From the NCBI GenBank assembly GCA_963775685.1, contig CAVZJV010000014.1, positions 1,792,001-1,856,000 on the forward strand: 64,000 bases of DNA, given 5' to 3'. A program made the position numbers and the translations under genes. The stretch comes from Candidatus Bathyarchaeota archaeon (GTDB taxonomy: Archaea; Thermoproteota; Bathyarchaeia; Bathyarchaeales; Bathycorpusculaceae). The notes below the pieces were generated by a model. It was not told the DNA's origin. It saw only the letters and a program-made list of their open reading frames with translations, and did not search any database. The first letter of the stretch is position 1; every line of letters starts with the position of its first letter. This document shows, piece by piece, positions 1,932 to 48,419 of this stretch.

Positions 1932-2621
1932 TTAGCATTGAATTTTGAGCCATACCTTTCGTTTAACAAAAATAAGCGAAGTAAGCCCTGTGATAAACGT
2001 TGAAACCAACACGATCATGTTAGCTAAGGTAATGGACGATGTGTCTTGATTCATCGCCAGAGCGATTGCGACAAAGAGGTAGAACGAGACTCCACCAGTT
2101 ACTAGTTGCAATCCAGAGATGATTTTTCCGCATTGTCCAGCTTTAGCCTTTAGCCAACAGAGGAAAGAGTCAATTCTTCCATGAACGTCTGGAAGGTCAT
2201 CTAAAACCAAGGCCCCACCGCCCAGCAAGAAAACCCTACCAACGTTAACTGCAACGCTAGTGTCGTTTACGAAAAAGATGTTAAACAAAGACACAGGTGT
2301 GAAGAATATAACATAAGCTCCGGAGAATAGCAAAACTAGAATGCCATAGAAGTAATGGTGGAAAAACAGTCTGCCGGTATGTAGAGAGCGCCCGAGGCCT
2401 GCGCTTGGAAAAATGTTAATCACTGCAGCAACGATTAGTACCCAAAAAAGGCTGGCACTTATAAGATACGGAGAGAATGGCTGCCAATTATGGTAGCGCC
2501 AGTAAAAGCCTGAGAGGATGCCCATTGCGCAGCCAATAGATAGGAGCGCGTTGAAGACCAAAGTAACGCTGAATGTTTTTTTGCAAATCACCCAGCAGTG
2601 CGTAGCTTTTTTACCCGCCAT
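1932..2621 (-). CDS. Hypothetical multi-pass membrane protein with HHxxxG...LxLDD motif
   Basis: About 6 hydrophobic segments; FHHYFYG and GALVLDDL motifs. Confidence 0.75.
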   Translation of the reverse strand: MAGKKATHCWVICKKTFSVTLVFNALLSIGCAMGILSGFYWRYHNWQPFSPYLISASLFWVLIVAAVINIFPSAGLGRSLHTGRLFFHHYFYGILVLLFSGAYVIFFTPVSLFNIFFVNDTSVAVNVGRVFLLGGGALVLDDLPDVHGRIDSFLCWLKAKAGQCGKIISGLQLVTGGVSFYLFVAIALAMNQDTSSITLANMIVLVSTFITGLTSLIFVKRKVWLKIQC

Positions 2622-2839
2622 TCAACTTTCCCTTTTTCTCTTGGAAAAATTATAATGAAATAAAATCAAGGTTGTTTTTGAACGTTACGGAAAACAAACG
2701 CCAAACCCGTTGGTTTTTCTAGTTTGTTATCCCAATTAACCTGAAAGCAGCATTTCACTATTTCCCCTCGAGATACCTACTTCATGTAAGGAGGCGATAG
2801 TTTTCTCCAAGCAACTATCTACGGCTTGTTTGTCAGAAG

Positions 2840-4792
2840 TCACATTTTTTCTGGTGCAACGACACCAATCAAGTTAAGTGCGTTATGCATCACGACTTTT
2901 ATGGCTTGGGTCAAAGCAAGTCTAGCATCGCTAAGCTCCACGGAATCAGCTTTTATCACGGGGTAAGAGTTGTAGAACGTGTTAAATTTGTCCGCAAGCA
3001 CGTTGATGTAGTCAGCTATCATGTTAGGTTTGAGGTACTCTGTGGCTTCGATGAACATGTCGGGAAACCCTGCAAGCGCCAAAATTAGTTCCTTCTCGAG
3101 CTTTTCGGTAAGTAATTCAAAACCGGGGTTTTCTGGTTCACGTGCCGCTTTACGCAGTATGCTACAGGCCCTTGCATGAGTATACTGAACGTAGGGTGCG
3201 CCATTAGTTTCGAAGTTTAGGACGCGTTCCCAAGTGAACACTACTGGTTTGGAATAATCCACGTCTACAAGTGCATAACGCACAGCGCCTAAACCAACGA
3301 AATTGGCGATTTTGCGTTTCTCACCTTCGCTTAGCATTGGTGAACGCTTCGAAACCTCTTCGTAGGCTCGTTGGACCGCTTCGGTTAAAACCTCGTCGAA
3401 TGTGATGTAGTGTCCTCTTCTGCTGCTCATCTTGTAGCCTGGCAACGTAACCAAGTTGTAGGCAAAATGCACCAAATTCTCTGCCTGCTCTCTGTAACCC
3501 ATGGCGTAAAGGGCGATTTTTAGCTGCAACTGTGCCAGCGACTGCTCCATGCCAATTACGTTTATGACTTTATTCGCTTGCTTAAATTTCCAAATTGTGT
3601 ATGCGATGTCGCGTGTGGTGTAGAGTGTTGTCCCGTCTGCGCGTCCTAACGTGAGCGGTGGAACCTCGTTGTTCTGGCTTAAACCCAGCGTTGCCTTCAA
3701 ACCAAGAGTGTCTACGACTTTTTGGGCATCAAACGCTAATACGCCTTCTTCGCTATAGACAAATGGTGAAGCTTTAAGCTTGTAGAGAACCTCAGTAACT
3801 TTTGTGCTCCAGACAAAGTCGCTCTCCCAATCCCACGAATCATAAGTCACAGATACACGTCTCATTGTTTCTCTGAAGCCTTCAAGACAGAGGTCGCTGA
3901 CTTGACGGATGAGCTGTTTTGCGTTGGCTTCTCCGTCTTCATAAGCGCGGTTTAAACGATTGATTTCTTCCTCAGGATTTTCATCTAACCCAATTTGAGC
4001 TGTTAACGCCTCAAAAAGCACAGGATATTTTTCTTTAAGTTCCGCTGCAATAGACATCCACTCGTCGATTTCCTGGTTAGCCTTCACCAAATCAGCTGTA
4101 GATTGGGCAGCAACCGCAGCTTCGCGTGCTCTCTTTTGGCGATTAATCTCGACTAGGCAGCTGGTTACAGTGTAGATTTTGCCAACGAAAAGATCCGCTT
4201 TCTCGGTTGGCTTTGGCTTGCCTAACTTCGCGTAGCCGTAAGCCACAACCGAGGATTGCCTTCCCACATCGTCAATGTAGTAGTGGCGAGAAACCATGTG
4301 TCCTCGGCACTGCAAAATCCGCGCTAAAGCATCGCCAATCATTGGATTTCTGGCTTGCCCTATATGGATGGGATGCAGCGGATTGACGCTGGTATGCTCA
4401 ACAATAATCTTTTTTGGCTCATCTGTCTTGACAAAGCCGTAGTCTGAATCCAACTCTTTAATAGACCCCAAGGTTAACGCGGAGAATTTAGAAAAGTTTA
4501 GGTGGAAGTTTATGTACCCTGCACCTGCAGGCGCAACCTTCTCGATGAGGTTAAAGCCTGATTTGTCCATGGCACCAACAATCTGCTCAGCTAAAACGAG
4601 CGGTTTATGATTAAGTTTTTTTGCCAACTCAAAACAAAGCGACGACGCTAATTGCCCATACTCAATGTTTGGTGTCTTGTTTAGAGAAATGTATGGCTGT
4701 TTTATTTCCGGCAGAGCCTTTCCAAGGGCGTTTGCTAACGAGGTTTGGCATTCCAGTCTGAACTGGTTGAAGGGATTCTGTGAAACCACCAA
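2840..4792 (-). CDS. argS: Arginine--tRNA ligase
   Basis: VEHTSVNP, HIGQARN (HIGH), KMSSRRG, PYVQYTHARACSI and the DALR domain; likely TTG/GTG start at ~4789-4792 behind GGAGA. Confidence 0.97.
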   Translation of the reverse strand: MVVSQNPFNQFRLECQTSLANALGKALPEIKQPYISLNKTPNIEYGQLASSLCFELAKKLNHKPLVLAEQIVGAMDKSGFNLIEKVAPAGAGYINFHLNFSKFSALTLGSIKELDSDYGFVKTDEPKKIIVEHTSVNPLHPIHIGQARNPMIGDALARILQCRGHMVSRHYYIDDVGRQSSVVAYGYAKLGKPKPTEKADLFVGKIYTVTSCLVEINRQKRAREAAVAAQSTADLVKANQEIDEWMSIAAELKEKYPVLFEALTAQIGLDENPEEEINRLNRAYEDGEANAKQLIRQVSDLCLEGFRETMRRVSVTYDSWDWESDFVWSTKVTEVLYKLKASPFVYSEEGVLAFDAQKVVDTLGLKATLGLSQNNEVPPLTLGRADGTTLYTTRDIAYTIWKFKQANKVINVIGMEQSLAQLQLKIALYAMGYREQAENLVHFAYNLVTLPGYKMSSRRGHYITFDEVLTEAVQRAYEEVSKRSPMLSEGEKRKIANFVGLGAVRYALVDVDYSKPVVFTWERVLNFETNGAPYVQYTHARACSILRKAAREPENPGFELLTEKLEKELILALAGFPDMFIEATEYLKPNMIADYINVLADKFNTFYNSYPVIKADSVELSDARLALTQAIKVVMHNALNLIGVVAPEKM

Positions 4793-41573: not shown

Positions 41574-43607
41574 ATGTCTAAGCTTGAAACTATTGATCCG
41601 CAGCAGCGTTTCCAAGAATTCTTCAAAAAAGAAAAGTATCGACAAAGAATCGCCCAGTTAGCCATCTCAGGAAAAGGCTCATTAATCATCGATTTTGAAG
41701 AACTCTATGGCTTCGACCAGGCACTTGCAGAGCATCTTCTATGTAAGCCTGAAGAGTACCTGCAACACGCTGGTAAAGGAGCATACGAACAGCTCAGAAT
41801 CGAAGATGCCGAATACGCAGAGAAAACCGAGAAAGTCATCGTCAGAATCGTAAAGCTTCTAGGAAAAGAAGTACTTAGAAAACTCGGCTCAAGACAGATG
41901 AGCAAGCTAATTATGGTGGAAGGCATCGTTGTCAGAGCCACACCAGTTCGCCCGATGGTCCAGATTGCAGCATTCAAATGCAAACGCTGCGGCACCATGA
42001 ACCAAGTAGAGCAAACGGGGCAGTTTTTGAAGGCCCCAGCGGTTTGCGTTGCTCCTGATTGTGGTAGAGATGGACCATTCGAGTTCAGTCAAGAAGATTC
42101 CACTTTTATAGATTCACAGGACCTGCGGTTGCAGGAAAAACCCGAAGACCTCCCTCCAGGACAGCTGCCACGAGTTTTAGCGGTGAAACTTGTCGGCGAC
42201 GAAATCGTGGACGTTGCAAGACCAGGAGACCATGTTTCCATAGTCGGCATTGTACGTGCATTTGCGCCTTCGTTGATGGGTATGGGGAAACTTCGAACCT
42301 TCATCCTGCAATTAGATGCGAACTCCATAGAGGTCCTTGGCAAAGAACCAGAGACTTCCCCGCCAACACCTGAAGAAGAAGCAAAAATTATCCAGCTATC
42401 CAAAGACCCTGCCGTTCACCGCAAAATAATGACCTCTATCGCACCCTCAATCTTCGGTCTTGAGCACATCAAAGAAGCTATTATGTACCTGCTGTTTGGC
42501 GGAGTTTCCAAGACTCTTCCAGACGTAAACGTGAGAGGCGAAATGAACGCGCTGCTCATCGGTGACCCAGGAACCGCAAAATCACAGTTGCTTCAGTATG
42601 TTGCAAGAATCGCGCCAAGAGGTCTATACACTTCAGGCAGAGGAACCACTGCCGCAGGTTTAACCGCAGCAGTCGTCCGAGAGAAAGGTGGAAGCATGAG
42701 CCTTGAAGCTGGTGCACTGGTTCTTGCCGACAAAGGCATCGCATGCATCGACGAAATGGACAAAATGCGTCCCGAAGACCGAGTGGCCATTCATGAAGCC
42801 ATGGAACAGCACACTGTGTCAGTAGCAAAAGGCGGAATAGTAGCGACATTAAACGCGAGAACAGCAGTTCTTGCAGCAGCAAATCCTTCATTAGGCAGGT
42901 ATGAACCAAACCGAACAGTAGCCGAAAACATTTCTCTGCCAGTAACCATCTTGTCACGTTTTGACTTAATCTTTGTCCTCCGAGACGTACCAAACAAGGA
43001 ATCTGACAGTAAAATGTCTAGGCATATACTTGAGATTCATAGAAGAGGAGTCAGCCCCGTTGAAGCACAGGTCGATGCGGAGCTTTTGCGGAAATACGTA
43101 AGTTTTGCCAAGAGCGTCCATCCGGAACTAAGCTTGGAAGCGTTAAACCGCCTAAGTGACTTCTACTTAGCTATGCGTTCCGCAAGCGAAACCGAAGGCT
43201 CACCTGTAGCTATTACTGCACGACAATTGGAGTCACTGGTTCGCGTCGCTGAGGCAAGAGCACGGGTTGCACTACGCAGCGAAGTCTCAGCAGAAGATGC
43301 GGAGGCTGCCATAGCGATTATGAAGCGATCGCTTGAGGAAGTTGGAATCGACATGTCAAGCTATAAAGTTGACATTGACTTAATTATGACTGGCAGACCC
43401 AAGAGCATCCGAGACAGACTACACGTAGTGTTGTCAACGCTTATGGACATGGAGAAGATAACAGGCATTGTAGAGAAAGACGCATTGGTTAATGAGTTGG
43501 AGACCCAGCACAAGATTCCGAGAGGCGAAGTTGAACGTATGATTGGGCAACTACTACGGGAAGGAACGATTTATGAGCCGCGCGAAGGATGCCTAAAGAA
43601 AACATAA
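41574..43607 (+). CDS. mcm: Replicative helicase MCM (no intein)
   Basis: C4 Zn motif, GDPGTAKSQ, IDEMDKM, SRFD, ARQLE, C-terminal wHTH. Confidence 0.98.
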   Translation: MSKLETIDPQQRFQEFFKKEKYRQRIAQLAISGKGSLIIDFEELYGFDQALAEHLLCKPEEYLQHAGKGAYEQLRIEDAEYAEKTEKVIVRIVKLLGKEVLRKLGSRQMSKLIMVEGIVVRATPVRPMVQIAAFKCKRCGTMNQVEQTGQFLKAPAVCVAPDCGRDGPFEFSQEDSTFIDSQDLRLQEKPEDLPPGQLPRVLAVKLVGDEIVDVARPGDHVSIVGIVRAFAPSLMGMGKLRTFILQLDANSIEVLGKEPETSPPTPEEEAKIIQLSKDPAVHRKIMTSIAPSIFGLEHIKEAIMYLLFGGVSKTLPDVNVRGEMNALLIGDPGTAKSQLLQYVARIAPRGLYTSGRGTTAAGLTAAVVREKGGSMSLEAGALVLADKGIACIDEMDKMRPEDRVAIHEAMEQHTVSVAKGGIVATLNARTAVLAAANPSLGRYEPNRTVAENISLPVTILSRFDLIFVLRDVPNKESDSKMSRHILEIHRRGVSPVEAQVDAELLRKYVSFAKSVHPELSLEALNRLSDFYLAMRSASETEGSPVAITARQLESLVRVAEARARVALRSEVSAEDAEAAIAIMKRSLEEVGIDMSSYKVDIDLIMTGRPKSIRDRLHVVLSTLMDMEKITGIVEKDALVNELETQHKIPRGEVERMIGQLLREGTIYEPREGCLKKT

Positions 43608-43620
43608 GGGAGGATGAGAC

Positions 43621-44709
43621 TTGAAGCCGGTCGTTGTGGTCGCAGGAACTAGACCTGAAATAATCAAGATGGCTCCGATAATTCGAGCACTAAACAAAGC
43701 CAAACTACCAAACATCTTTGTCCTTTGCGGTCAACACTACGATTACAACATGTCTCAACAATTTATCGAAAACCTCGAGCTGGAAATGCCTGACTACGCG
43801 TTGAAAATTGAGGCTTCTTCACCCGGGGCGCAGACTGCTGAGATAATGATGAAGATTGACAAGGTACTTGAGAAATATGAGCCATCCACAGTTTTGGTTG
43901 AAGGCGACACAAACACTGTTCTAGCAGGGGCACTTGCTGCAAATAAACGAACTATCCCTATAGGTCATGTGGAAGCCGGGCTCAGGAGCTTTGACCTTCG
44001 GATGTCCGAAGAACACAACCGCCGCTTAACTGACCACATCTCAGATTACTTATTTGCCCCCACAGAACGCGCAAAAGCCAACCTTCTGAAAGAGAACGTT
44101 TGGGGCAAAATTTACGTCACTGGAAACACAGTCATAGACGCAGTAATCCAGCACTTACCCATCGCTGAAAAGAAATCTACAGTAATGGAACAAATTCCTT
44201 TCGAAGAATTTGTTTTGGCAACGGCGCATCGAGCTGAAAATGTTGATGACTTGGCGTTTCTTCAGTCATTTGTGGAGGTTTTCTCGAATTCGCCCCTTCC
44301 CATTGTTTACCCTATGCATCCCCGAACAAGAAAACGTCTACAAGAAAACAATATGCTTTCACAAATAGAAAAAATGAATAGCGTGTTGATTTTGCCTCCG
44401 TTGGGTTACTTGGATTTCTTGATTTTGATGAAGAACTGCCGCTTAATAATCACTGATTCCGGCGGCATACAGGAGGAAGCAACTGCGCCCGGCATCGGAA
44501 AGAGGGTGTTGGTGATTCGGTTGTCTACAGAAAGGCAAGAAGCAGTTGAAGCGGGTTTTGCCAGGTTGGTTGGAACCGACAAAAACAAAATTTTACAGGC
44601 ATTAAACCAAGCAGTTGAAGCAAAAGAGAATTTGCCTTCAGTTTCACCTTTCGGAGATGGCACAGCAGCCATAAAAACTGTGGATATAATAAAGCAAGAT
44701 TTTGTTTAA
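43621..44709 (+). CDS. wecB: UDP-N-acetylglucosamine 2-epimerase (non-hydrolysing)
   Basis: GTRPEIIK, GQHYD, GDT, HVEAGLRS, TDSGGIQEEA. Confidence 0.96.
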   Translation: MKPVVVVAGTRPEIIKMAPIIRALNKAKLPNIFVLCGQHYDYNMSQQFIENLELEMPDYALKIEASSPGAQTAEIMMKIDKVLEKYEPSTVLVEGDTNTVLAGALAANKRTIPIGHVEAGLRSFDLRMSEEHNRRLTDHISDYLFAPTERAKANLLKENVWGKIYVTGNTVIDAVIQHLPIAEKKSTVMEQIPFEEFVLATAHRAENVDDLAFLQSFVEVFSNSPLPIVYPMHPRTRKRLQENNMLSQIEKMNSVLILPPLGYLDFLILMKNCRLIITDSGGIQEEATAPGIGKRVLVIRLSTERQEAVEAGFARLVGTDKNKILQALNQAVEAKENLPSVSPFGDGTAAIKTVDIIKQDFV

Positions 44710-45476
44710 GAGATGTAGGTTGTTTTCTTGTCGTCTTGTTTTCTGGTTTCTTCGGCTTGCACAGCACGTTTTTCTTCTATTTGTTGCAGGCGCGTAACCA
44801 TTGTTTCGGCTTTAGCAATTTCTTCGTTTAATCCCGCTAGGTCCAATTCAAAGTTAAACGTTGACTTTAACACTTCCAAAACACTTTTAGCTGCCAGTGG
44901 ATCAGGCAAATAACCACGTGTTTCACCCAGCAAACATAGAGCGTCAATTTTTTTGAATTTCGCCAACCCAAGGATTAATCCTGCAGTACCAACAATTGGG
45001 CTTCCTGAAGCGCTTAATGTTGCTCCGGCTTGGATTGCCGCGTTTAGGACAGCTTGGCTGGTTGCAGCTATGTAAACTTTGGGTTTTTCTGTGGATTCCA
45101 TGCGGTAACCTCCGATGGTTGCGATAGTCTTAACGCCATATTTTTCGCTAAAGTCCAGCATTCTGTCAGCGATCTCGTATTGTCCTTCTATGGTTTGGCT
45201 TTGGCTATCACCAGTGAAGAGGATGATGTCGTTTCCTTTTGGGTTTTGGTAATAGTAGAATGCCCCGCGGAGCAAGCGCACATTACCTTTTTTGTTAACT
45301 AAAACAAAGTAGGGGAAGTGCGGTGAGTAGAGATAGGCGATTTTTTTGGCTTTTAGCTGTTTGATTAGATATCGCAAAGCAATTTTGCCAACCAAGCCTA
45401 AACCTGGAAGACCTTCAATGAGGATGGGACTGTTAGGGTGGATTTCGGCGAATTCTTTGATGTATGTTTCTTTCAT
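44706..45476 (-). CDS. PAC2 family proteasome assembly chaperone
   Basis: EGLPGLGLVG, LLGETRGY.PDP. Confidence 0.92.
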   Translation of the reverse strand: MKETYIKEFAEIHPNSPILIEGLPGLGLVGKIALRYLIKQLKAKKIAYLYSPHFPYFVLVNKKGNVRLLRGAFYYYQNPKGNDIILFTGDSQSQTIEGQYEIADRMLDFSEKYGVKTIATIGGYRMESTEKPKVYIAATSQAVLNAAIQAGATLSASGSPIVGTAGLILGLAKFKKIDALCLLGETRGYLPDPLAAKSVLEVLKSTFNFELDLAGLNEEIAKAETMVTRLQQIEEKRAVQAEETRKQDDKKTTYIS

Positions 45477-45643
45477 TCTGTTTGAGCGCTCCTTTTCATA
45501 GCCATTCGGTACTTCAGGTATTTATCGTCTGGGGAGAATTTAGGCGGATGAGGAATTCTCACTGCACCACCACAGTAGGGACAACTAGTTTTGTTCAATG
45601 TATATTTTTCGCAGTTTACGCATTTGCGCAATTGCCAAACCAA
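45473..45643 (-). CDS. nop10: H/ACA RNP protein Nop10 (56 aa, not in the ORF track)
   Basis: TTG start; RKCVNCEKYTL...CPYCGG...PHPPKFSPDDKY.KYR; ATGA overlap with PAC2. Confidence 0.93.
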   Translation of the reverse strand: MVWQLRKCVNCEKYTLNKTSCPYCGGAVRIPHPPKFSPDDKYLKYRMAMKRSAQTE

Positions 45644-45698
45644 TCATTTATCCCTTCTAAAACTGCCAAGTCGCCGCTTCCAGCTTGCGCTTAGTCAT
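45644..45698 (-). pseudogene. Putative deletion scar of translation initiation factor aIF2-alpha
   Basis: 55 bp at the canonical aIF2a position encode MTKRKLE, GDL and GSFRRDK* in different frames. Confidence 0.55.
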
Positions 45699-45713
45699 AT
45701 GGGAAGTCATCTT

Positions 45714-45911
45714 TTACTCTAGAACTGCTTGGACGTCACCATTGATTCTTGCTCTTCCACCAGAGGGTTCAGCTAAGGTTTCTCCGCATACATTGCAGAC
45801 TATCTTGTTAACTGCGTTGCTGAAGATAAGTTGTTCATTGCCACACTTTAGGCATTTAACCCTGAGGAAGACACTTTTGGGCTTTGGAATAAGTTTGTTC
45901 CAATTAGACAT
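45714..45911 (-). CDS. rps27e: 30S ribosomal protein S27e
   Basis: PKSVFLRVKCLKCGNEQ..F, CNVCG..LAEPSGG. Confidence 0.96.
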   Translation of the reverse strand: MSNWNKLIPKPKSVFLRVKCLKCGNEQLIFSNAVNKIVCNVCGETLAEPSGGRARINGDVQAVLE

Positions 45912-45930: not shown

Positions 45931-46206
45931 TTATATTATGGCTAGTTTTCTAAGGCGGATACCATCTTTGTGACGCATGTAATTACAAACTCTACATTTT
46001 AAGCGCAAAGTTTGTTTTTTGGTTGTTTTGGCGAATTCGTGTTGCAATGGATATTTTTGTCCGCCATACCCCTCTTTTTCACGTTCATGGTGTCTTTCGC
46101 CTCTGGCAAGTGCTCGCCGTTTACCTGCCTTGTAGAGGGTTACACTGTGAATCTGATGAACTTTACATTTTGGACAGTAAGTCTTTACTTCTTTGGGAAC
46201 GTTCAC
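45931..46206 (-). CDS. rpl44e: 50S ribosomal protein L44e (eL42)
   Basis: TYCPKC, GYGGQ, KTTKK..LRLKCRVC. Confidence 0.96.
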   Translation of the reverse strand: MNVPKEVKTYCPKCKVHQIHSVTLYKAGKRRALARGERHHEREKEGYGGQKYPLQHEFAKTTKKQTLRLKCRVCNYMRHKDGIRLRKLAII

Positions 46207-46624
46207 GGTTTCAACCAGCTTTGCATAAAAGAAACATACACATTCTTATACTTTATGACTTTTAAAGCAAAAACCCCTAGCTTTCAATGAAAGGCTTTGT
46301 TTTTTCTTTAATATTAGCAGTGGCAGAAATCTTCCTAACAACAACAACCAACAGCTCGTTCCACAAATTGCTTTCCGTAAACTATCCTTAAATGGGTTGT
46401 AGGCTGGCTGAGCCAAGCTGCTAAAGCTGCAAGAAAAGTACAGGCTGTAAGCTCAAGTTTCATTTCAGGGGGCATAAGCATATTTTTATTGTCCAGAATC
46501 GTTATCGTATGGCTCTGCAGGGTGACGATAGCCTATTGTTAGGTCCTTTGGGTTTCGGTAACTAAATTTATTAACTCAAAGTGCAATGTTTAGCTATACA
46601 ACTCAATGCATGAGGAAGAGGTAT

Positions 46625-47380
46625 ATGTTCAAGCTTAAAGTGTCTGACGCTAAACTCTTAAGAGATATGGCAACTGCCATCTCAATTCTAGTTGACGAGG
46701 CAACCTTCAAAATTGACGCTGAAGGCTTAAAACTCCGTGCCATGGACCCGTCACGTGTTGCCATGATTGATTTTGAATGGCCAAAATCTATATTCCAAGA
46801 ATTCGTGTGCGCTGAGCCAACGAAAATCTGCCTGAATATAAGCGAGTTGCTAAAACTCCTGAAGCGAGCAGGAAAAGAGGAAGCAGTCGAACTCTCCCTT
46901 GATGATAAAACAGGCAAATTACTAGTCGCAATAACTGGAAAATATAGCAGAAACTTTACTATGCCAACGCTTGAAGCCTCTGAAGAAGAAGTCCCAACAC
47001 CAAAAATCACATTCAACGTCAAAGCCAAAACCACAACTCAGGGTTTAAGCCAAGCAATCGAAGACGCCCAACTCGTAAGTGATCACGTAAAAATAGAGGC
47101 TGAACCAGAAAAAATGACGTTGAGCGCTTCAGGTGACTTGATGGGCGCAACCATCATACTCCAAAAAGGCAATGACGCCTTACTCGACTTAGAAGTTAAA
47201 GAGAACGCTAAAGCAACCTTTAGCCTAAGCTACCTATCAGAAATCATAAAAGCAGCTTCAGCAACTTCAGACATCGCAACCCTTGAATTCTCATCCGACA
47301 TGCCCGTTAGAATAGACTTCCAGCAGACAAAAGAGGGAAAGTTAACCTTCTTCTTGGCGCCAAGAATCGAAACAGAATAA
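46625..47380 (+). CDS. pcn: DNA sliding clamp PCNA
   Basis: AMDPSRVAM, FSLSYL, FFLAPRIE. Confidence 0.97.
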   Translation: MFKLKVSDAKLLRDMATAISILVDEATFKIDAEGLKLRAMDPSRVAMIDFEWPKSIFQEFVCAEPTKICLNISELLKLLKRAGKEEAVELSLDDKTGKLLVAITGKYSRNFTMPTLEASEEEVPTPKITFNVKAKTTTQGLSQAIEDAQLVSDHVKIEAEPEKMTLSASGDLMGATIILQKGNDALLDLEVKENAKATFSLSYLSEIIKAASATSDIATLEFSSDMPVRIDFQQTKEGKLTFFLAPRIETE

Positions 47381-47393
47381 TGAGACGTACACC

Positions 47394-48419
47394 TTGCAGA
47401 TGGAATCGGCACTATCTTCTGAGGATTTTGCCAAATACCCATTTCTAAAGCAAGCATCGAAACAGATAGAAGAACTGCAGTTTACAATAGGGACCTTATC
47501 TTCAGAAAAACCAGTTTTTGATCGCGCCCAAAACCGAATAGAAAAGGCAATCTTGGAAGTTAACACTGGAGAGGCAGTAAGGGACGGAAGGACAGAAATT
47601 TCTTCTTTTGCAGCCGCAATTATTCTGGTTATTGCAACAAAAAATTCGTGGATAAAAAAAAGGTACGCATTGTCTGTGGCAAAAACAGCGCACGCAAAGT
47701 TCCTTTGTGAGAGCAAAGCAAAAATCATGGCTATCGCCCAAGACTTTGATTGGGATATTGGCCAAGGTATCGTGGGCAAAGATTTTCGTGTAGGCTATAA
47801 TATCTACTTGAAAAATGCAGCTCATATGCATGGTTCTGAGTGGAAGCTTATTAACCAAATTATGGATAAGGGCATGGTTTATCTGAACAAAGACAAAGCA
47901 GTTCGACTGCTTCAGGAAGAAGTAAAGAACCGCGTGGAAAAAAGGCTCAATGTTCCAGAACTCAAAAACCTGCCCCAAGAGATAACTTGTAAAGCTGAAG
48001 GTTTAGCGAAATTGGCGCAGGAAATTATGGGACAAGAAATCGAGGAACTCCCTAAAGTTGTTGTCAAAGCAGCTTTTCCCCCATGTATAAACGCCCTCTA
48101 CGCGGATGCAGCCCAAGCCCATCATCTTTCACATATCGGACGTTTCACCCTAACATCTTTTCTAGTAAACATTGGGATAACTCCTGAGGGACTTAATGAG
48201 ATGTTTAAAACTTTCTCAGACTACAACGAACGCTTAACCCGTTACCAAATCGAGCACATTGCTGGAGAACGCGGGTCGGGAACAAAATACACTTGCCCTC
48301 AATGCTCAGTGCTCCAAACGCATGGTGTATGCAAGAACCGCGATAATTTGTGCCATTGGATTTATCACCCGCTACAGTACTATAAAAGAAAGCAAAAGAC
48401 GATGACAAAGGCGAAATGA
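47394..48419 (+). CDS. priL: DNA primase large subunit
   Basis: AKYPFL, FPPCI, HIGRF, YQIEHIAG, C..L...G.C, HPLQYY. Confidence 0.95.
   Translation: MQMESALSSEDFAKYPFLKQASKQIEELQFTIGTLSSEKPVFDRAQNRIEKAILEVNTGEAVRDGRTEISSFAAAIILVIATKNSWIKKRYALSVAKTAHAKFLCESKAKIMAIAQDFDWDIGQGIVGKDFRVGYNIYLKNAAHMHGSEWKLINQIMDKGMVYLNKDKAVRLLQEEVKNRVEKRLNVPELKNLPQEITCKAEGLAKLAQEIMGQEIEELPKVVVKAAFPPCINALYADAAQAHHLSHIGRFTLTSFLVNIGITPEGLNEMFKTFSDYNERLTRYQIEHIAGERGSGTKYTCPQCSVLQTHGVCKNRDNLCHWIYHPLQYYKRKQKTMTKAK

Follow-up and report, generated by a model that had tools for sequence, protein, structure and literature searches.

An eroded aIF2-alpha gene between rps27e and nop10 in a Bathyarchaeia operon, a diverged second copy, and a possible role of the relic in translational coupling

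What becomes of a translation initiation factor when its place in a conserved operon is nearly empty, and why would a fragment of its gene stay behind? These questions are raised by a gene cluster in a 64,000-nt stretch of DNA from a Bathyarchaeia genome (the window, to which coordinates refer unless another locus is named). Berthon et al. (2008; PMC2643942) gave the name LSIN to the cluster L44E-S27E-aIF-2 alpha-Nop10, often found beside the genes for PCNA, primase and Gins, and described lineages with only LS or with split clusters; in the available portion of the main text of that paper neither an in-place relic nor a second aIF2-alpha copy is mentioned. The cluster in the window is like the LSIN cluster in its genes, their order and their orientation, and is flanked by MCM (41574-43607), PCNA (46586-47380) and PriL, the primase large subunit (47394-48419), which fits the replication-translation supercluster of Berthon et al. 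It is unlike the LSIN cluster in that the I gene is cut to 55 nt, so that L, S and N are present and ordered on one strand and I is a relic.

All genes of the cluster lie on the minus strand. The first is rpl44e (L44e; 45931..46206; Pfam PF00935, E 1.1e-25), followed by rps27e (S27e; 45714..45911; PF01667, E 5.1e-20), both called from open reading frame and Pfam match. Between rps27e and nop10 there are only 70 nt (45713..45644), as an earlier note on this DNA had reported together with the letters concerned. The first 15 nt of this spacer (45699..45713) separate the rps27e stop from the old aIF2-alpha start, a spacing that is 12-17 nt in all 43 relics examined below, and the remaining 55 nt (45644..45698) match both gene ends of operon-type aIF2-alpha. 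Then follow nop10 (45473..45643; PF04135, E 2e-23), which begins with TTG, and a PAC2-family gene (44706..45476; PF09754, E 4e-45) that overlaps the nop10 stop by 4 nt (ATGA).

Within the relic three pieces can be recognised. ATGACTAAGCGCAAGCTGGAA at 45698..45678 corresponds to the old codons 1-7; after the dinucleotide GC comes GGCGACTTGG at 45675..45666, the old Gly-Asp-Leu piece; and GGCAGTTTTAGAAGGGATAAATGA at 45667..45644 comprises the old last seven codons and the stop, whose TGA touches the TTG of nop10. The abutting stop had been seen in the earlier note, which did not say that each of the three pieces is in a reading frame of its own. The frame opened by the relic ATG closes after 13 codons at a TAG (45659..45657), 13 nt before nop10, and the stop abutting nop10 therefore now belongs to another frame than the ATG. 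What is left today is a mini-ORF of 13 codons that starts with ATG and ends with TAG (45657..45698, minus strand) and is putatively translated.

The 55 nt are the remains of the operon's original aIF2-alpha gene. Aligned with 37 intact operon aIF2-alpha genes of the same genus, an alignment to relatives that the earlier note had proposed, the relic reached a best gapped score of 27, whereas shuffled versions had a mean of 8.1 (sd 2.2, maximum 15) and none of 300 reached 27; against the genome's own second aIF2-alpha copy the score was 15. The ends of the operon copies have the consensus MAERKPEWPE.GDLV... and ...GQGTFRREK*, with which the end motifs given in the note agree. The relic sits between rps27e and nop10, resembles both ends of the gene beyond chance and has intermediates in relatives, as a pseudogene remnant of the operon aIF2-alpha would; as a gene it falls short, since 55 nt in three frames stand in place of an open frame of ~260 aa with the PF00575 and PF07541 domains. 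A known RNA family or a stable structure in the spacer was considered and rejected: an Rfam search of the spacer gave no family match, and its predicted RNA fold is nothing unusual (z -0.53).

A 720-nt in-frame internal deletion took nearly the whole gene in the line leading to this genome, and smaller deletions then broke the frame. The deletions map to reference positions 16-25 and 42-762. The junction of the 720-nt deletion is common to at least six other genomes (G057, G061, G093, G086, G078 and G060), and the relic in the window has lost a further 11 nt, mapped as a 10-nt and a 1-nt loss (55 nt, compared with 66 nt in G057). In the kin nearest to the window the old ATG has become ATA (G060 and G078), with a separate frameshift in G060; as the old start is gone in the closest kin, constraint may be relaxed exactly in this small clade. 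That most of the gene had been deleted in place, as the note proposed, is borne out by this shared junction and by a graded series in congeners from ~800 down to 44 nt.

This series emerged from a survey of 81 sampled genomes of the same genus, in all of which the operon was located and the interval between rps27e and nop10 read. The operon aIF2-alpha is intact in 37 genomes, with an interval of ~800 nt, and in 43 only relics remain, 44-285 nt long when counted from the old ATG. In one genome (G069) there is a full-length operon copy ridden with stops, which was left out of the relic counts. Both the operon copy and a second aIF2-alpha copy were found in 21 of the 81 genomes, the operon copy only in 16, and a relic or pseudogene together with a second copy in 41. 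Three genomes, all 52-65% complete, have a relic with no second copy found, and no genome of more than 65% completeness among the 81 lacked both copies. A search with the second copy gave matches in 79 of the 81, the two unmatched genomes being 52% and 58% complete. The state of the operon copy changed at least five times on the tree of second copies and at least seven times on a weakly resolved tree of four proteins. Beyond the genus aIF2-alpha is in the operon at 6/6 loci of the other families of the order and in 4/5 other genera of the family. In G069 and G081 (operon loci L092 and L104) many stops occur in the aIF2-alpha region and in the neighbouring PAC2; as PAC2 of G069 is riddled with stops too, the quality of that assembly is in doubt, and in the two genomes the stops are due to true decay of the entire operon copy or else to a consensus of poor quality. 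A relic of ~160 nt between rps27e and nop10 was also seen in G123, a member of genus g21 (L237:2184-2345), with a second copy and the 125-aa gene described below on another contig; the displacement has in this sense crossed the genus border.

The organism is not without the factor. A scan of the 3.06-Mb assembly (96.9% complete) with Pfam PF07541 gave one match (94.8 bits), on the same contig as the relic and ~354 kb away. It is an intact frame of 262 aa (L001:1399-2187, minus strand) with S1 (PF00575) and EIF_2_alpha (PF07541) domains, and it matches a solved archaeal aIF2-alpha with an E value of 7e-60. aIF2-beta and aIF2-gamma are represented by one gene each. The earlier note, which had proposed both this profile search and a check for the beta and gamma subunits, had left a choice between a lineage that initiates translation without aIF2-alpha and one in which the gene had been relocated. 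The former is excluded by the intact copy and by the presence of beta and gamma. The latter holds in so far as an intact copy lies elsewhere, and fails as a simple relocation, since that copy belongs to a diverged lineage, 59-70% identical to the operon copies, which coexists with them in 21/81 genomes. Upstream of the second copy in the genome of the window and in G077 there is a TIR-domain gene, which at L002:8655-9785 (minus strand) encodes a protein of 376 aa with a CAP12/Pycsar-type TIR domain (E 1.7e-5, just over the Pfam cut-off).

Second copies of congeners are 71-93% identical to that of the genome under study, while operon copies show the 59-70% identity to it already given and PAC2 proteins are 73-95% identical to that of the window. 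In both types of aIF2-alpha dN/dS is 0.03-0.13; the second type is under strong purifying selection, and types that stand alone in a genome have somewhat lower values, a difference that is suggestive only. At no more than six alignment positions do the two types differ while each is at least 90% conserved in itself. Among them is residue 49, which is Arg in 62/62 second copies and Trp in 49/49 operon copies across the order; it lies in a loop that we take to correspond to the Ser51 phosphorylation loop of eukaryotic eIF2-alpha, which presumably has Arg at the matching place. None of 138 genomes of the order outside the genus had two PF07541 matches. One congener (G060, contigs C8 and C9) carries two nearly identical second copies, 92-93% identical to that of the genome under study; contamination of this MAG is 6%, and the pair probably reflects mixed strains, not another duplication.

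The origin of the second copy was examined in a careful site-heterogeneous tree of 48 aIF2-alpha sequences and 262 columns, to which four other genera of the family had been added. The second copies form a clade (support 100/100) whose sister group is made up of the operon genes of G206 and G209, both from the neighbouring genus g21 (100/94); two further g21 operon genes join this group (96/92), whereas the genus of the window has an operon clade of its own (88/87). AU tests rejected a grouping of the second copy with the operon copies of its own genus (p 0.0023) and a single group of every operon copy from the two genera (p 0.013). These results are to be read with the caveats that they concern one gene, with long branches on both partners, and that the groups for the AU tests were named after the tree had been seen. 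A careful tree of the four neighbouring operon proteins recovered g21 as monophyletic and sister to g18 plus the genus of the window. As the second copy groups with operon genes of the neighbouring genus and not with those of its own, it was probably acquired by transfer, as a xenolog of the g21-type operon gene. The second copies of g21 itself (G123 and G212) nest within those of the window's genus, and transfers may therefore have gone both ways.

Two topologies obtained earlier did not survive. A duplication inside the genus as the source of the second copy appeared in a quick tree with distant outgroups only and fell once closer genera were added. In a quick tree of four proteins the clade with intact operons lay inside the relic clade with weak support, and the two separated in the careful tree; the quick topology was used in counting only for the minimum number of state changes.

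In xenologous or paralogous gene displacement the native form of an essential-type gene is first accompanied and then replaced by a diverged second copy. The case described here is like this in that both aIF2-alpha copies coexist and reciprocal losses follow across species, and in that the replacing copy branches with the genes of another lineage, in a tree of a single gene with long branches. It is unlike it in that the gene displaced belongs to a tightly coupled operon and therefore leaves a shaped relic when lost, and in that the donor was seemingly a sister genus. A partial parallel comes from Haloferax volcanii, for which, in the part of the source available, two partly redundant aIF2-beta paralogs are described and deletion of aIF2-alpha is said to be viable at a severe cost in growth (PMC8576121, citing Gabel et al. 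2013). There too two paralogs of one aIF2 subunit partly replace each other; the duplicated subunit in the Bathyarchaeia is alpha, and every genome above the 65% completeness mark retains at least one copy.

The second copy has a neighbour. An ORF of 100-125 aa, outside the window and 3 nt downstream of the second aIF2-alpha (L001:1018-1395, minus strand, contig C14), is conserved after it in 46/64 loci examined and was not found in five genomes without a second copy. The family has 24 invariant positions, among them a GKGT motif. For the 125-aa protein there was no Pfam match, no Atlas hit and no Foldseek match at E <= 0.001; the AF2 model had a pLDDT of 70. Two identities were tried and rejected: that of a protein-kinase N-lobe, for which the best VIA-align Z was 6.2 and under the tool's noise mark of ~8, and that of a ribose-1,5-bisphosphate isomerase, an enzyme of the eIF2B-related family, for which the best hit of a PDB profile search (E 0.022, domain i-Evalue 0.55) was too weak to name. 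The protein may be a partner of the acquired aIF2-alpha. In G046 (L137:1423-1728 and 2501-3289), from a clade keeping both types, the second copy is without the 125-aa neighbour and lies in a locus differing from that of the window's genome, where an aIF1A gene (PF01176, E 4e-22) precedes it by ~770 nt and a treble-clef zinc-finger gene comes after it.

The question of why a fragment of the old gene has stayed was approached through the reading frames of the relics. The old ATG is kept in 39/43 relics, and in 33/43 the old ATG reads in frame to the old stop, which lies 0 nt (30 relics), -1 nt (2) or +2 nt (1) from the nop10 start. Seven relics, that of the window included, end at a TAG 12-13 nt upstream of nop10, and three run 28 nt into it. 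Frame 0 is open across the relic in 36 of the 43, frame +1 in five and frame +2 in none. Genome counts such as 33/43 overstate independence because relics share ancestry, and deletion events and relic architectures were therefore counted as well. Among clean single deletions those of 738, 720, 681, 660, 648, 627 and 501 nt are multiples of three and one of 569 nt is not (7/8 clean large deletions, P 0.0026), and 19/27 distinct architectures, sorted manually, are in frame (P 9e-5). Six or seven of the eight out-of-frame architectures occur in single genomes (G000, G060, G063, G064, G081, G083, G093), with two of the single-genome frameshifts in homopolymers, where they could be sequencing errors; one out-of-frame form is common to three species (G004, G019 and G047).

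Two separate clades (G053; G077/G079) have converged on an open frame of 14-15 codons or 45-48 nt, and such minimal relics keep ~18 nt of the 5' end and ~21 nt of the 3' end. Across 139 substitution events in relic families of equal length there was no new stop (neutral P 0.0027) and no change in length, a result favoured by the choice of families, which were picked after they had been seen to be open. The dN/dS of relics is ~0.3-1.3, compared with ~0.03 for nop10; together with the open frame this makes it seem that the frame is kept while the peptide drifts. The earlier note's proposal that operon coupling was retained is in keeping with the 33 relics that read in frame to a stop at nop10 and does not carry over to the window itself, where the frame is broken and stops 13 nt short.

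The start of nop10 offers little of its own to attract ribosomes. TTG is the start codon in 36/43 relic genomes and in 25/37 with an intact operon gene, ATG in five and one respectively. No Shine-Dalgarno sequence was found before nop10, where pairing computed with the 16S tail ...GGAUCACCUCCU gave a median duplex of -4.1 kcal/mol, against -3.8 for shuffles; a modest match to the anti-Shine-Dalgarno was found upstream of the old ATG (-5.2 to -6.6, shuffles -3.8). Two short segments are 80-99% conserved in relics, namely ~12 nt of TTTTAGAAGGGA just before nop10 (45644-45667 in the window) and a GATGA-type motif after the rps27e stop. A Shine-Dalgarno function as the cause of the conserved TTTTAGAAGGGA was rejected, the duplex energy being that of shuffles. 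RNA-library contigs of relatives join nop10 to relics, which is at most a sign of co-transcription and a weak hint.

Translational coupling by termination-reinitiation at overlapping or abutting gene pairs was reportedly described by Huber and colleagues in 2019. The relics resemble such pairs in several respects: the downstream gene has no strong initiation signals of its own (TTG, no Shine-Dalgarno), the relic stop lies at 0 or -1 nt from it in 32/43 relics and nop10 and PAC2 share an ATGA. They differ from them in that the upstream 'gene' is a vestige without a product of its own and the coupling is deduced from an evolutionary pattern. A later study of Haloferax volcanii and Escherichia coli, in the part of it available, found that termination-reinitiation coupling collapses at a spacing of ~20 nt, that two E. 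coli pairs kept 60% and <20% at +14 nt and that the last 15 nt of the upstream gene are enough for coupling (Huber et al. 2023; PMC10666635). The window, at +13 nt, also departs from the abutting arrangement, its distance being close to that at which the published pairs reinitiated at <20% to 60%.

The explanation that we regard as probable, with some reserve, is that the eroded native gene was displaced by the second copy and that an in-frame relic was kept as a coupler to nop10. The second copy, probably a xenolog from a neighbouring genus, would have entered the genus early and coexisted with the native copy, which it made dispensable; the native copy would then have been lost at least five times, and the second copy would now supply the alpha subunit of aIF2. 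From the weak TTG of nop10, its lack of a Shine-Dalgarno sequence and its abutment on the old stop we infer a dependence on ribosomes arriving from the upstream frame. Ribosomes finishing that frame would start nop10 by termination-reinitiation and go on to PAC2 by way of the ATGA overlap. A deletion would have been tolerated if it left a short translated frame between the old ATG and the old stop, and purged otherwise, in what would be nature's equivalent of 'non-polar in-frame deletions'. The pattern of retained frames suggests that the relic may have been kept as a translated mini-ORF handing ribosomes to nop10. In the window the frame would since have slipped, and with a mini-ORF ending 13 nt upstream the coupling would be weakened, not necessarily lost. 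A wider proposal, in which the relics are selected 'coupler' mini-ORFs and, jointly, the displacing aIF2-alpha with its 125-aa partner and the change from Trp to Arg hints at a distinct aIF2 isoform, is put forward tentatively, as we lean slightly away from holding both parts together.

An artefact of assembly, in which the organism has the full gene and the assembler dropped it, might be suggested by the public runs, which hold at best a 0.10 share of the window's sequence. The 720-nt junction is, however, found in the six other independently assembled genomes, relics occur in 43/81 congeners, and an unrelated soil metagenome yielded a contig of 140 nt that spans nop10, relic and rps27e of a near relative and has two extra bases, so that an artefact is excluded for practical purposes; the single PF07541 match in the genome also speaks against it. 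A more serious rival is plain neutral decay, whereby the relic would be a pseudogene remnant without a role that survives since deletions into rps27e or nop10 are lethal, the frame pattern being the product of ancestry and chance. The frameshifted relic of the window and its closest kin without the ATG fit this account, as do the almost neutral dN/dS of relics, their relation by descent and the 10/43 that are out of frame. It does not readily accommodate the in-frame excess among clean deletions and architectures, the arrival of two separate clades at the same minimal 45-48-nt open frame, the 139 substitution events without a stop or a length change within families, or the near confinement of out-of-frame architectures to one genome each, with only the form of G004, G019 and G047 shared. 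We consider neutral decay unlikely on this evidence, while granting it real weight.

It might also be that the kept ends are RNA or DNA signals, such as a ribosome-binding or stability element of nop10 or an internal promoter, and that translation of the relic is irrelevant. Such a reading draws on the two conserved segments at the junctions and on the modest anti-Shine-Dalgarno match upstream of the old ATG, yet it leaves unaccounted for the retention of frame and the avoidance of stops in the variable middle, and neither pairing of a Shine-Dalgarno kind before nop10 nor an Rfam match nor an unusual fold came to its aid; it appears improbable. Less probable by far is a functional micropeptide that joins N- and C-terminal portions of aIF2-alpha. 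Most relics do have an open frame, with conserved peptide ends (MAERKP..., ...FRREK), but its length varies between 14 and 94 codons, there is no constraint on the middle, the conserved ends fall where the nucleotides themselves are constrained by two gene junctions, and in the window the peptide is frameshifted.

Among open-access papers and preprints no report was found of gene relics kept as coupling frames, nor of two aIF2-alpha types in Bathyarchaeia. A cluster that ranks among the best conserved in archaea is here seen losing a gene stepwise within one genus of uncultured soil and peat Bathyarchaeia, and two long-lived types of aIF2-alpha in one lineage are documented with reciprocal loss. 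For annotation it follows that, when a universal gene seems 'missing', the rest of the genome should be searched first, and that short 'intergenic' stretches in coupled operons may be vestiges that are translated. The relics, by their shape, would offer evidence from evolution, with no recourse to laboratory reporters, that it matters for translation to reach the start of nop10 in a lineage beyond the reach of genetics. If displacement by the second copy with retention of the relic as a coupler is the true history, the genus would be a natural titration series for archaeal termination-reinitiation, with couplers of 14-94 codons and distances of -28, -1, 0 and +13 nt.
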